From Pocillopora damicornis (lineage: Eukaryota), in the NCBI RefSeq assembly GCF_003704095.1, contig NW_020843386.1:186001-249948 (forward strand): 63,948 bases of DNA, written 5' to 3'. Within the stretch, counting starts at the first letter, position 1. Every line of letters begins with the position of its first letter. The position numbers were made by a program. Shown here piece by piece: positions 36,001 to 45,804 of this stretch.

Positions 36001-39000
36001 AATAAAGCGTGCAAAAATGAATGTTTCAGCTTTATAAGGTAGTAGTTAAATCTCGAGAGGTATGTGTTTAAAGCAATTTTTTTTTTTTTTTATGGCAACG
36101 TCACTCATTTAAGATTTTTCTGTCAAAGAAAAGCTGGTTCCTGCTGCCGTTCGTCATTAGTCAAGTCATATTACTAAGAAGCTCTGTTCAATTTTTTGGA
36201 ACAAGAGAATTCTCAACTGGTACACAAAGCAGTCAGAAAGATTTTTAAAACGCTAGGGTTGATGGANNNNNNNNNNNNNNNNNNNNNNNNNNNNNNNNNN
36301 NNNNNNNNNNNNNNNNNNNNNNNNNNNNNNNNNNNNNNNNNNNNNNNNNNNNNNNNNNNNNNNNNNGTTTTAATACTCGCTGAATACGTTGGCTCTTGAC
36401 TTTTACGTTGTCACAGTAAACCGTTACGTGGTTGAAAAACTGATCGATCTTCATTTGTGTCTGGAAGTAAAACAACATGAACTTATTAGGTATATGCAAA
36501 CATGTTGTACGCCACGGGATCTTTGAAATAATAGCCTAGAATAGTTGAAATACACAAAAGAGGTAAAACATAGAAAAAGAATCAACTAATATGGTAGATT
36601 ATAACGTATATTGTATACACATCATTCAGCCTCCGGTTGCGATATTTATTGAGTATCTCCCTATCTGATAGGAGAACAAGAAAAGGCTTTCAGGAATGAA
36701 GAGGATATAAAAGAAGTAACATCTGTCAGTTAGAGTTCTGACTATCTCAGCAAAGTTTAAGTTAGACCGAGATTTCAAACAAAAATTGGACCTCGAGGTT
36801 ACCGTTTTTGATAAAATTATCAAAGTAAATAGACATTTTTTTTCGTAATGTTCGTGAGAAACTTTCTCGACATTGCTCAGGACAAAAAACGTTTGGATAA
36901 AACTTTTTTCTCAACGGGATCTAGTTATCAACGCGATCACGCGGTATTTGTAAATAACGATAACAGCCAGCCTAATGTCTCCAGATCGAAAAAATACGAA
37001 CCCTTTCCCTGGAAAAGCTTTTAGCCCACTTAACAGCGGCGCCGCAGGACCGCGCCATTCAGAACATGATAACACTGGCCTAAGATTAGAGTTCATTTAA
37101 GCTCTGTAGAAATTGTTAATTTAATGGGTTAGGGTAAGGGTTAGGGTAAGGGTTAGGGTTAGGAGTTTTTGGTTTTTTTCAGGTTTGCCTTGCACTTCGA
37201 TCAAGTGCAACCCAAGTGTTGGATAATTCTAACACTTTCTTCACGAAAAATAAACACCAAGTTAAATCTTTCATACTTAGTTAGGTGCCAACCACTTTTC
37301 AGGAAATCGGAAACAGGGACGTAACTTCGTTCCCGCGTGCAATAGCGAGAAGTCGCGCAAAGAAAAACAAGATTACAAAAGTACATAATTCGTCGGGTAA
37401 AGTCTTGAAATCAGTGTGCACCAAGAATTACCATTACTCTCGCTTAAGACTAACATTCCTGCCTCTAACTTACCTTTTTTTCACTGAGTCGCTTGATCAA
37501 AGGATTTAGAACCTCGTTTGTCTTGGCTTCAGTCCAGCCAAGGATTTTGAAAGCAAATGTGAGAATGTTAAGGAGTTATTAGTGATGCTTATCTCCTTGT
37601 GTTATCAACATATTACGAAGCAAGCGGACAACGAGAGTACCGAGTGTTGTGGTTCTCGTTCAAGAACAGGAAGCGTACGAAAACGCACATATGTATATAA
37701 CAAAGTACAAAGAACACAACTAACTAAAAAAAAACAAAGTCACACTACCAATGAATAATTATTAGATGCCCATTTTTGTATATGGTGGCCCTAGGTACTA
37801 GTACCGTGATAACCGCTAGCCGGAATCTAGGCAATATCACGACACAGAGAATAATTAATTACAGGACAAGTCTCCATGCATCCTGGTAAAGGAAATTCAA
37901 ATTTTGAAAAAAATACAATTATGCATGACAATTTATTTTGCAACAGTTGCATGTTGTCCTTAAAGGACATGTTGCATGGAATGTTCCTGATTCAAGTAAG
38001 GCCTTTAAAGATACAAAAATACTGATAAGGTTAACTTGGAAAGGATATGATTTAAGGAACTCCAGGTCTGGATGTTTCCATTCAAAATCCCCTGTTTGTT
38101 TCTCTACCGCCGGATTGCTATAAGCGTCATAAACTGCTTTAGATGGAAAGTCACTTGGCAGCACCACACCTCTCTACAAAACAAAAAAGGCAGAGAGAAA
38201 CAATTGATAACCCACAATAGGACTTGAATTATCTATTTTAGTTCTAAGTTAGCATCGAAATATTCACTGGCACGATACTTGAGCAGGTTTCACTGGTTAA
38301 TCACCCTAATAATGTCCACAACATGGGCTAGTTAAATTGAGCTTCTTACAAGACGCTTCCTAATTCTGCCTTCGTGGGGATCCCTCGGGCCTTTTTGGGC
38401 TTCGTCATGCCAGCATCTAAAGAATTGACGCAGATAAAATGCCATTAGATACCCACAAACACAAAATAACACGATTACGATGATCAGGACGAAATCACGA
38501 CCAAAAATTTCATGATGATCAGATATGATTATCTATGTGAACCTCGAAAAGCTTCGCTGTGGGTTGAAATTCAAATTTACCTCGATCAATGAGGACTGTG
38601 GACATTACAGTAGTAATAAAAATTAATTTTTACATCTATCCCCCGTAGTGTTGACTTGGTCTTAAACTGAACGAACTAGTTATTAAATCAAGCATCAATC
38701 CCACAATAACCTACCTAAACTGCTCAAGACCCTCGAAATCTTTAATAGAAAACTCGTGAAGAATCTCCACGGCATTAACTCCTCCAAACCCTGCAAAATA
38801 AAAATCCATAAAACAACTTGTTAGTTGAGTTAGTTAGTTGAAGTCCCAACCGAGTTATGTTCCAACCGAGAAAAGAAAATCTTAAATTTCTTTGGGGCAC
38901 ATACTCTGACCTCGAACAAGCTCCTCTCCCACATTTAATGAAGTCTTCCGTGAGTAGGAAATTCTGCTTATAACTTCTCCGACGGTTTGAGTCGAGCTGA

Positions 39001-45000: not shown

Positions 45001-45804
45001 ACAGAACTAGAGGTGCATAAGCTTATATATTTTGCCTTAAATGGGATCTAAAGACAGCAAGGATACCAACTCCGATAGTCTTGTTCTGAAGGGTCTCTAT
45101 TGTAACAGGCTTTCCTGCCGGTTTTATTAATTCCCACAATCCTTTCACTCCCATCTCGATTCGCTGATGCCCCCAACACGAACTCCCTTGTTTATATCGA
45201 GATTTTGTGGCCGCTGGATTCAAACATAAAGTAATTATTCATGGAACTACGATAGATGTTTCGGTACGTTTTCTCCTGAGGCGATTTGGGATCTCGGTTT
45301 GATCGCGCTAAAGTAATGGCACCGCGAAAATGTACACGAGGATGGAAGCTTACGCGAAATGAAATAGAAGTACTCTGACCTTGTTAATAAACAACACGAT
45401 TTAACAAGTTAATTACTTGCTATGACTGTCACGCTTCTTGGCAAGCTATTAACCTGACAATCCCTAATAGCTGCTTTTAGCCATTGTTTTTCAGAGGGTC
45501 TCGTACGTAAAATGTTGATTTTTTTGGGCGCTTAGTAAGCACATCTTGTCTTTCCTGTTTGCCGTGGAAAGTTCCTTGTTGCAGCGTTTAGATCAACCCT
45601 GATGAAGGCACTAGAAAGACGTTGGGTCTATGAGTTGTAACTTCTTCGGTTACATTCATTAAATCTGTTAACCAGAGTAGTATCAATTATTGTTATTAAT
45701 ACCCAGTCCCCAGCATTGCATCTTTGTGAAAAGATTACATGAAGAATCTACCAAGTCACACTATGACCGCTGAACTAAGGATGATGATGATAATAATAAT
45801 AATG

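Follow-up and report, generated by a model that had tools for sequence, protein, structure and literature searches.

A compact, spacer-poor nuclease gene of the XPG class in the coral Pocillopora damicornis

The XPG (ERCC5) class of the Rad2/FEN1 nuclease superfamily, class I, has as its defining feature the spacer that separates the N and I nuclease regions. In human XPG and yeast Rad2 this spacer is ~600 aa long and includes an XPD-anchor domain and acidic p62/Tfb1-binding segments, according to three sources (PMC11445577, PMC12873601, PMC8888383), the first of which places the human XPD-anchor domain at residues 157-296. TFIIH docking, bubble specificity and the coordination of dual incision are all ascribed to the spacer (PMC1888826, PMC11445577, PMC12873601). 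In PMC1888826, spacer-deletion mutants of XPG keep flap cleavage and are impaired in bubble cleavage and in NER, and the N-I separation quoted for the FEN1, EXO1 and GEN1 classes is <70 aa. Crystallographic XPG cores (6TUR, 6TUS, 6VBH, 4Q0R) have also been made without the spacer and have a short N-I linker. GEN1, the class IV nuclease, is marked by a chromodomain after the nuclease core. To our knowledge, the role of the spacer has so far been probed by engineered deletions only, and a natural, conserved XPG without a spacer would be an evolutionary test case. No coral or short-spacer XPG was found in the titles and abstracts searched.

The window analyzed here is a stretch of 63,948 nucleotides of Pocillopora damicornis DNA (assembly GCF_003704095.1, contig NW_020843386.1, positions 186,001 to 249,948 of the forward strand), and a neighboring gene likewise assigns it to Pocillopora. 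Its minus strand carries a gene, here called mini-XPG, that extends from an ATG at 45154 to a last visible coding base at 36367 (Table 1). The 13 traced exons total 1462 nt (487 codons), their frames are open and their phases agree, and they are followed by a 100-N gap; eleven of the 12 introns are GT-AG and one is of the U12-type AT-AC kind. These results bear out the coordinates, 13 exons and roughly 490 codons given in a preliminary description of the locus. When 20 minus-strand ORFs of the region were translated and searched against Pfam, three gave matches: XPG_N was found in two (E 4.5e-5 and 4e-14) and XPG_I in one (E 4.1e-20). The other 17 had none. A gene on the opposite strand was ruled out, eight plus-strand ORFs (65-139 aa) having no Pfam family, and a retrocopy was ruled out by the 12 introns and by exon limits common to the canonical gene.

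Table 1. Coordinates within the window of mini-XPG exons and associated features.
Feature	Coordinates	Strand	Remarks
Exon 1	45067..45154	-	ATG, XPG_N start; 29/29 residues identical to P0003
Exon 2	44198..44373	-	Remaining XPG_N (Pfam E 4e-14); FVFDG, second catalytic Asp; start of gateway helix 2
Exon 3	43559..43674	-	Gateway helix 2; aligns with human XPG ~89-127, including the XPD-contacting helix
Exon 4	42830..42931	-	102-nt in-frame cassette, skipped in P0003
Exon 5	41853..41994	-	Rest of linker, predicted disordered; no Pfam family
Exon 6	41452..41559	-	108-nt in-frame cassette, capping helix; aligns with human XPG ~733-773; skipped in P0001
Alternative stop-ending exon in intron 6	40976..41026	-	Used by relative P0358 (N-domain-only product)
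Exon 7	40386..40599	-	XPG_I core (Pfam E 4.1e-20): EAEAQCA and DDSD, four catalytic carboxylates
Exon 8	39382..39450	-	GSDYT motif: seventh carboxylate, H2TH
Exon 9	38715..38790	-	H2TH continued
Exon 10	38350..38416	-	67 nt; skipped in relative P0002, giving a frameshift and truncated protein
Exon 11	38049..38173	-	Conserved post-I region
Intron 11	37559..38048	-	U12-type AT-AC; donor ATATCCTT; branch site TCCTTAAC 8 nt from 3' end
Exon 12	37474..37558	-	Traced exon
Exon 13, visible part	36367..36460	-	PIP-type motif QMKIDQFF; runs into N gap
100-N gap	36267..36366	.	Conceals 3' end of gene
Decayed XPG I-region exon copy, lone	59175..59318	-	Interrupted by in-frame stops; acidic motif lost

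Four intron-less contigs from close relatives (P0001, P0002, P0003 and P0358) are ~95% identical to the gene, have identical junctions, and join exons 3, 4, 5 and 6, or exons 3 and 5, directly to one another. The gene is thus real, spliced and transcribed, transcription being observed in the relatives. The nuclease exons are 94-100% identical to those of the relatives; the most variable exon, at 82% (27 of 33 residues), is cassette exon 4, which has no Pfam family. P0003 continues for ~70 residues beyond the last visible exon, compared with ~230 in the C-terminal extension of Oculina ERCC5, and a basic tail is present in the relatives. None of the four transcripts contains all 13 exons, and only one encodes the complete nuclease core; they are cluster representatives, a sample that favors unlike transcript forms.

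All seven catalytic carboxylates are kept in mini-XPG, together with the gateway and capping helices, the H2TH and the PIP box. Placed through an alignment of P0003 with human XPG, the carboxylates correspond to human D30, D77, E789, E791, D810, D812 and D861; the codon for the first catalytic Asp is split across the junction of exons 1 and 2. The exon 13 motif aligns with the human PIP box and lies in the same place near the C-terminus. Of the columns that do not vary among 22 canonical XPGs, 56 are covered here; 53 of them are kept, including every acidic one, and three are changed. Retention of the acidic motifs and PIP box, as earlier proposed, holds for the window exons. The XPG_N and XPG_I domains, the seven carboxylates with the H2TH (GSDYT) and the fold are those of the Rad2/FEN1 superfamily, within which human XPG and yeast Rad2 are the best PDB matches in both sequence and fold. 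Compared with PDB chains, P0003 matches human ERCC5 at E 4.7e-101 (aligned over 1-128 and 730-1019) and Rad2 at 2.8e-76, whereas GEN1 (6.1e-30), FEN1 (~1e-28) and EXO1 (8e-14) match far more weakly, FEN1 by ~70 orders of magnitude relative to XPG. An AF2 model, made from P0003 and not from the joined window exons, has a core pLDDT of 80-94, with Foldseek TM scores (target) of 0.87-0.94 for the human XPG core, 0.86-0.89 for Rad2, at most 0.84 for FEN1 and 0.58 for GEN1. The NCBIfam model rad2 (TIGR00600) scores 465 bits vs. 151 bits for fen_arch; the former is below the cut-off of 1204, as is canonical Oculina ERCC5 at 695 bits. With FEN1, EXO1 and GEN1 the protein shares a short N-I separation and the superfamily fold, and with FEN1 the PIP box, but sequence and fold scores rule out all three identities. 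The linker, moreover, has roughly double the length of <70 aa given for these classes in PMC1888826, which sets it apart from FEN1 (class II), and the post-I region aligns with XPG 860-1019 rather than pointing to GEN1; the closest relatives belong to neither group. Judged by its sequence, mini-XPG is a class I, XPG-type 5' structure-specific nuclease of ~560 aa.

The spacer is nearly missing. By Pfam boundaries the N-to-I distance is ~155 aa (in relative P0002, N 2-94 and I 250-331), or 121 aa without exon 4, compared with 645 aa in an Oculina ERCC5-like protein (N 1-96, I 741-822) and 632 aa in Acropora, and falls short of the >600 aa typical of class I. An N-domain BLAST alignment extends ~18-25 residues into exon 4, matching the start of the canonical spacer, and an I-region alignment reaches back ~30 residues into exon 5, matching its end, leaving Oculina residues ~145-650 unmatched. 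These two matches, one to each end of the canonical spacer, imply that ~500 aa were deleted from its interior. No spacer remnant was found when seven canonical-type coral sequences were compared with the whole window by tblastn, which matched traced exons only, the matches of canonical coral proteins stopping at the exon limits of the mini gene. Canonical coral ERCC5 residues ~125-690 gave nothing better than E 1 against the window, and positions 127-736 of a 1187-position XPG profile never scored positive in any of the window's six frames. Spacer exons hidden in the introns or elsewhere in the window are ruled out by these searches. Introns 3-6 measure 627, 835, 293 and 852 nt, and the repeats found in the introns are one 101-nt tandem pair (intron 6) and one 73-nt inverted repeat (intron 4). 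The near absence of the spacer was correctly anticipated in the preliminary description, with an estimate of ~130-150 aa, as was the absence of spacer sequence from the introns; its characterization of these as repeat-filled was overstated. Four spacer columns invariant in the 22 canonical XPGs, from oomycetes to vertebrates, have no counterpart in mini-XPG, and the parts of the spacer that bind TFIIH are missing (XPD-anchor domain, acidic p62-PH-binding patches and conserved boxes). The XPD-contact helix within gateway helix 2 is partly kept, with four of seven residues identical and two conservatively replaced, so that a residual link to TFIIH is possible.

The short spacer could in principle be an artifact of assembly, the missing exons having been collapsed or lost inside a gap. 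The assembly is indeed gapped, with 13 N runs in all, one of which hides the 3' end of the gene. No N run was found within 36367-45154, however, and the independent contigs of the relatives, which join exons 3 to 6 or 3 to 5 without intervening sequence, already contradict this reading, making it highly improbable. These cDNA-like contigs carry the same short linker, and the long spacer that could have surfaced in cDNA does not appear in them.

Canonical scleractinian ERCC5 proteins have a long spacer and are 1210 aa (Oculina patagonica), 1214 aa (Acropora millepora), 1210 aa (Montipora foliosa) and 1291 aa (Porites harrisoni) in length; in these scleractinians a short spacer is hence not the norm, a possibility that had been raised at the outset for the sole cnidarian XPG orthologue. 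Mini-XPG shares with them collinear N, gateway, capping-helix, I, H2TH, post-I and PIP regions, yet is just 49-54% identical over shared columns. The final tree comprised 27 rows and 539 columns, leaving out Steinernema, Tetranychus, Epithemia, Musca, Lymnaea, Coturnix and P0404, and replaced an earlier tree of 903 columns that included spacer columns and gave long-branch warnings. In it the mini proteins form one clade with six canonical scleractinian sequences (100/100). Over its columns mini-XPG has an identity of 53-54% with robust corals, 49% with complex corals and 37-43% with bilaterians, compared with 73-79% between canonical corals and Oculina. The stem of the mini proteins measures 1.05 substitutions per site vs. 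0.07-0.22 for tips, a branch 5-10 times longer than in canonical coral ERCC5, a strong divergence, in keeping with the divergent character noted earlier. The gene thus evidently descends from a scleractinian ERCC5 gene. An AU test does not reject its grouping with robust-coral ERCC5, an orthologue-like placement (p 0.22), and the tree is compatible with either a fast-evolving orthologue or a lineage-specific duplicate; the family phylogeny suggested in the preliminary description settles the descent and leaves these two unseparated.

Evidence beyond the tree touches on the same choice. The decayed I-exon copy, whose score was reached by none of 200 shuffles, sits 14 kb upstream of mini-XPG between two PLCXD genes and shows that XPG sequence has been locally duplicated. 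Per-exon profiles (10 exons) revealed no further relic exons near 59 kb, the best stray scores being 5.2 and 2.9 bits, and at the DNA level the gene resembles other parts of the window in just one 42-nt match (83% identity). Mini-XPG itself lies 11 kb from a PLCXD gene, and Desmophyllum has both a fragment of canonical-type ERCC5 and four PLCXD2 proteins listed on contigs of equal size (1,257,822 bp), which suits an orthologous position no less than a tandem copy. The best 120 of 2909 matches to an Oculina ERCC5 query come from Oculina, Porites, Montipora and Acropora, plus one other coral fragment; no ERCC5 of Pocillopora or Stylophora is named among these or in the literature searches, and no long pocilloporid ERCC5 is among those 120. 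This absence is weak evidence, since the databases also lack other coral proteins that are annotated elsewhere. Two further database entries are of robust-coral type and matched no named species: P0005, an I exon of canonical type with 35 cluster members, and a canonical-type transcript, P0242 with P0009. At 59-63% identity to the mini form, like Oculina, they are ruled out as specially close to it; the spacer part of P0242 gave no usable match in the ESM Atlas.

The explanation we prefer, with a probability of about 0.55 for the whole, is that mini-XPG is a spacer-deleted, fast-evolving ERCC5 duplicate that acts as a flap or splayed-arm endonuclease, tethered to PCNA and independent of TFIIH. 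An internal deletion took out the ~500 spacer residues and with them the XPD-anchor domain, the conserved boxes and the acidic p62-binding patches; the C-terminal extension was largely lost too, and the gene's rate of evolution afterwards rose to 5-10 times that of canonical coral ERCC5. Retained are the split active site, gateway helices 1 and 2, capping helix, H2TH and PIP box, with the basic tail seen in relatives. It would most likely be a lineage-specific duplicate beside an unseen canonical ERCC5, and a paralogue is favored over the only Pocillopora XPG, with the local duplication of XPG sequence and the canonical-type robust-coral entries on its side. Flap activity independent of TFIIH is expected, rather than 3' incision in NER, because published spacer-deleted XPG cuts flaps and performs poorly on bubbles and in NER (PMC1888826); the FEN1-like or NER-independent activity suggested in the preliminary description is likewise an inference from that work. 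Paralogy, substrate preference and use of PCNA are putative. The crystallographic cores have nearly the same architecture (TM 0.86-0.94). Unlike them, mini-XPG occurs naturally, with a promoter, introns and isoforms of its own. Its gateway and capping helices have their full length, and it carries 47-81 residues of remaining linker, a PIP box and a basic tail. As a paralogue it would represent an NER nuclease re-tooled into a compact, possibly PCNA-linked nuclease.

Alternatively, mini-XPG may be the pocilloporids' only XPG, the ERCC5 orthologue at its ancestral locus, still performing 3' incision in NER through its gateway and capping helices. The linkage to PLCXD genes apparently shared with Desmophyllum, the lack of a long pocilloporid ERCC5 in the database matches, the placement with robust corals allowed by the AU test and the partly retained XPD-contact helix fit this reading, as does the only moderate effect on NER of losing the p62-binding patches alone (PMC12873601). 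The missing XPD-anchor domain and four invariant spacer columns argue against it, the 5-10-fold faster rate is more typical of a redundant copy, canonical-type robust-coral sequences do exist, and the database silence counts for little; we regard this reading as possible but tentative. Its fullest form, in which pocilloporids have no canonical XPG, the 560-aa protein carries out NER 3' incision and the decayed I exon is the last trace of a lost copy, is doubtful. If true, it would mean NER 3' incision without a spacer in a shallow-water, UV-exposed animal, challenging the need for a ~600-aa spacer in NER and making it dispensable in a metazoan. It is unlikely that the gene is a redundant, decaying duplicate, transcribed and noisily spliced but without selected function. 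In favor of this, three of the four forms transcribed in relatives either are defective or have no capping helix, the tree gives the gene a very long stem, three otherwise invariant columns are altered and a fully decayed I-exon copy lies nearby. Yet all 13 exons are open, most invariant columns and every catalytic carboxylate persist despite ~50% overall identity to coral ERCC5, the core exons are better conserved across taxa than the cassette exon, and unlike forms are favored by the choice of cluster representatives.

Automatic pipelines would label mini-XPG as ERCC5 or as a fragment. A U12-type intron, the kind found as intron 11, is also listed for mammalian ERCC5 (PMC1557818).

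The gene for an XPG-like nuclease with a short spacer between its XPG_N and XPG_I regions (the mini gene, encoding the mini protein) was traced on the minus strand from an ATG through 13 exons (E1-E13) totaling 1462 nt, or 487 codons, and every exon is open in the phase dictated by the preceding exons (13/13). The tracing bears out the coordinates, exon count and codon count of the preliminary description. There are 13 runs of N in the window, one of which (36267-36366, 100 N) adjoins the last traced exon and hides the 3' end of the gene; none lies between 36367 and 49083. Among minus-strand ORF translations, 3 of 20 gave Pfam matches (XPG_N twice, XPG_I once). 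Eleven introns are GT-AG. Intron 11 (38048-37559, minus) is a textbook U12-type AT-AC intron with donor ATATCCTT and branch site TCCTTAAC, and intron 1 (45066-44374, minus) has a U12-like donor, GTATCCTT, and a branch-like CCTTGAT 12 nt from the AG.

Traced exons of the mini gene (window positions)
Exon	Position	Strand	Remark
E1	45154-45067	minus	starts at ATG 45154
E2	44373-44198	minus	
E3	43674-43559	minus	
E4	42931-42830	minus	102 nt, in-frame cassette
E5	41994-41853	minus	
E6	41559-41452	minus	108 nt, in-frame cassette
E7	40599-40386	minus	
E8	39450-39382	minus	
E9	38790-38715	minus	
E10	38416-38350	minus	67 nt
E11	38173-38049	minus	
E12	37558-37474	minus	
E13	36460-36367	minus	runs on into N gap

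Several introns contain repeats. These include a 101-nt tandem duplication in intron 6 (41064-41278; 2.1 copies, 81% alike) with an alternative stop exon (41026-40976) just downstream, an inverted repeat resembling a miniature transposon in intron 4 (42390-42563; 73-nt arms, 79% complementary, 28 nt apart), and, in intron 12 (37126-37163), a short array of telomere type that reads (GGGTTA)6 on the plus strand.

The window gene was searched exon by exon; the whole-protein search, fold, tree and whole-protein conservation counts refer to database proteins of close relatives about 95% identical to the window, cross-checked per exon against it. With the 71-aa I-region exon as query, 352 of 474 candidate proteins matched at E <= 1e-10. 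The top three, 94-97% identical, are P0001 (491 aa), P0002 (385 aa) and P0003 (547 aa), each carrying XPG_N and XPG_I, and the next match, an Oculina ERCC5-like protein of 1210 aa, is just 62% identical. A search of cluster representatives added a fourth relative, P0358 (260 aa). The source contigs of all four (2.3-2.7 kb for the first three) are intron-less, so these are spliced transcripts, and the relatives' proteins reproduce the traced exon junctions when aligned back onto the window (tblastn). None of the four has all 13 exons together: P0003 skips E4 and P0001 skips E6, both in frame, P0002 skips E10, with a frame shift and a truncated protein, and P0358 uses the alternative exon within intron 6 and terminates at its stop. 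Only P0003 encodes the complete nuclease core; its 71 residues beyond the point where the N gap starts find no match in the window beyond the gap (tblastn). Identity to the closest relative ranges from 82 to 100% per exon, lowest in the E4 cassette (27/33) and highest in core exons (E8, 22/22; E11, 41/41; E7, 68/71).

The mini protein belongs with XPG among the Rad2-family nucleases. P0003 aligns to residues 1-128 and 730-1019 of solved human ERCC5 (E 4.7e-101), ahead of yeast Rad2 (2.8e-76), GEN1 (6.1e-30), FEN1 (~1e-28) and EXO1 (8e-14). The NCBIfam rad2 model gives 465 bits versus 151 for archaeal FEN1; both this score and that of canonical, long-spacer Oculina ERCC5 (695 bits) fall below the curated rad2 cut-off of 1204. 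Modeled with AlphaFold2 from a 19-row alignment (mean pLDDT 68.7, pTM 0.63), P0003 has a confident core (pLDDT 80-94), a long helix (105-154), a second helix (196-221), a disordered stretch between them (152-194) corresponding to E5, and a disordered tail. Foldseek with this model ranks XPG first (9a88 chain I, E 6e-35; TM 0.87-0.94 for human XPG cores), followed by Rad2 (0.86-0.89), FEN1 (up to 0.84) and GEN1 (0.58).

Alignment to human XPG finds all seven catalytic carboxylates (human D30, D77, E789, E791, D810, D812 and D861), as well as the GSDYT motif and a PIP box (QMKIDQFF vs human QLRIDSFF). Across 22 canonical XPGs ranging from oomycetes to vertebrates, 60 alignment columns are invariant. 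Of these, 55-56 are covered and 51-52 kept in the relatives; for the exons of the window itself the counts are 56 and 53, with three substitutions (R to T, L to K, T to S). The remaining 4 columns lie in the canonical spacer and are without counterpart in the mini protein. E3 aligns with gateway helix 2 and E6 with the capping helix, placed at 82-129 and 734-763 of human XPG (PMC11445577). Of the seven residues named for the XPD-contacting helix, human 108-115 (PMC12873601), four are identical, two conservative, and F113 is replaced by K.

What is lost is the spacer. The N and I regions, as bounded by Pfam, are ~155 aa apart (121 aa when E4 is skipped), compared with 645 aa for the canonical ERCC5 of Oculina and 632 aa for that of Acropora. 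Within the window, canonical coral ERCC5 proteins match the traced exons only, residues ~125-690 finding no match (tblastn), and a 1187-position XPG profile is positive on 11 of 13 exons (E4 and E5 excepted), with no positive score anywhere in the window for positions 127-736. BLAST alignments of the N domain reach 18-25 residues into E4, those of the I region reach back ~30 residues into E5, and Oculina residues ~145-650 are unmatched by the mini protein. The simplest reading of these alignments is that a canonical coral ERCC5 lost ~500 residues by internal deletion. In human XPG the lost segment is reported to comprise the XPD-anchor domain at 157-296 (PMC11445577) together with acidic p62-binding patches at 150-160, 357-368 and 654-657 and the conserved D1/D2 boxes (PMC11445577, PMC12873601, PMC8888383). 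The search of cluster representatives returned 9018 proteins at E <= 0.001. With P0358 set aside, 149 of the best 150 range in length from 665 to 1696 aa, and in every one the match to the I-region half begins at residue 358 or later; shorter canonical spacers exist, as in P0404 (665 aa, I region near residue 390). A linker of 155 aa is beyond the range observed among these 149 proteins and P0404. Literature searches, judged by title and abstract, turned up neither a coral XPG nor a natural short-spacer XPG.

In an alignment of 539 shared columns, identity to the mini protein is 53-54% for the ERCC5 of robust corals (Oculina, Desmophyllum), 49% for complex corals and 37-43% for bilaterians; among canonical corals, identity to Oculina in these columns is 73-79%. 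A Rad2/XPG phylogeny, suggested in the preliminary description, places the mini proteins in the scleractinian ERCC5 clade: a 27-row maximum-likelihood tree, with which two quick trees agree, unites three of them with six canonical scleractinian sequences at 100/100, branching order inside the clade being unresolved, and gives the mini stem a length of 1.05 substitutions per site, the tips measuring 0.07-0.22. Matches to canonical ERCC5 stop at the mini gene's exon limits. These shared limits and the U12-type intron argue that the entire gene probably descended as DNA; mammalian ERCC5 is tabulated with a U12-type AT-AC or AT-AT intron (PMC1557818). A retrocopy is ruled against by the same two features.

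The mini gene is read here as a probable paralogue, with a probability of roughly 0.55-0.6. This reading is favored by the 5- to 10-fold rate increase of the mini protein, by ERCC5 sequences of canonical and robust-coral type in the databases, and by a decayed copy of the I-region exon nearby. The canonical-type sequences are P0005, a genomic exon ORF with 35 cluster members, and P0242 with P0009, a transcript that matches Oculina at 65% identity along the spacer. The decayed exon (59318-59175, minus) stands alone between two PI-PLC X-domain (PLCXD) genes, has in-frame stops and has lost the EAEAQ acidic motif; it scores 8.7 bits, and none of 200 composition-preserving shuffles of the remaining window exceeds 2.7 bits. 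At least one local duplication of XPG sequence has therefore occurred. No other relic XPG exons were found near 59175-59318, where N runs at 61156-61470 and beyond might conceal some.

That the mini gene is instead the sole XPG orthologue is less likely, though it has points in its favor. The best 120 of 2909 matches to the Oculina protein include no long ERCC5 from Pocillopora or Stylophora, but this absence is weak, as for the neighboring PLCXD gene the same databases gave only a single Pocillopora record with a species name (P. meandrina) and none from Stylophora. A tree constrained to group the mini proteins with robust corals is 2.9 log-likelihood units worse (AU p 0.22), and an orthologue-type position is thus not rejected. 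The canonical-type Desmophyllum fragment P0007 and four PLCXD2 proteins all come with a contig size of 1,257,822 bp, from which alone a shared contig is deduced; this suggests an ERCC5-PLCXD linkage in Desmophyllum paralleling that of the mini gene with PLCXD in the window.

A mechanism can be proposed from the reported behavior of XPG mutants. Spacer-deleted XPG reportedly kept flap activity and lost TFIIH interaction, NER activity and the ability to cleave bubbles efficiently (PMC1888826), and NER is reported to be impaired strongly by XPD-interface mutations and moderately by p62-patch deletions (PMC12873601). By analogy, the mini protein would be a compact nuclease loading onto splayed arms or 5' flaps, with its PIP box tethering it via PCNA to sites of replication or repair, and would act outside the TFIIH-organized pre-incision complex. 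The cassettes E4 (linker) and E6 (capping helix) and the two truncating splice forms could tune, or merely lower, the active fraction.

The nearer PLCXD gene (56076-57080, plus), 11 kb from the mini gene, has a single exon with an intact ORF. Its product shares 98% identity with a protein of Pocillopora meandrina and 100% with further records, which places the window in a Pocillopora coral (Scleractinia, robust clade) and not in human DNA. A second PLCXD gene in tandem (~62000-63250, plus) is broken by several N runs. Four exon types make up a large tandem gene family at 1-35400 and 47700-55300 on both strands: PAN/apple, C-type lectin, and two more conserved types (one starting TFHYD, the other with GWTLVMKMNG) that matched no Pfam family; the ORF list shows at least 8 PAN-type and at least 6 lectin-type exons. 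Two near-identical, inverted C-type lectin exons (32238-32666, plus; 33671-34084, minus) flank a 100-N gap (33027-33126), an arrangement explained either by recent duplication in inverted orientation or by faulty scaffolding.
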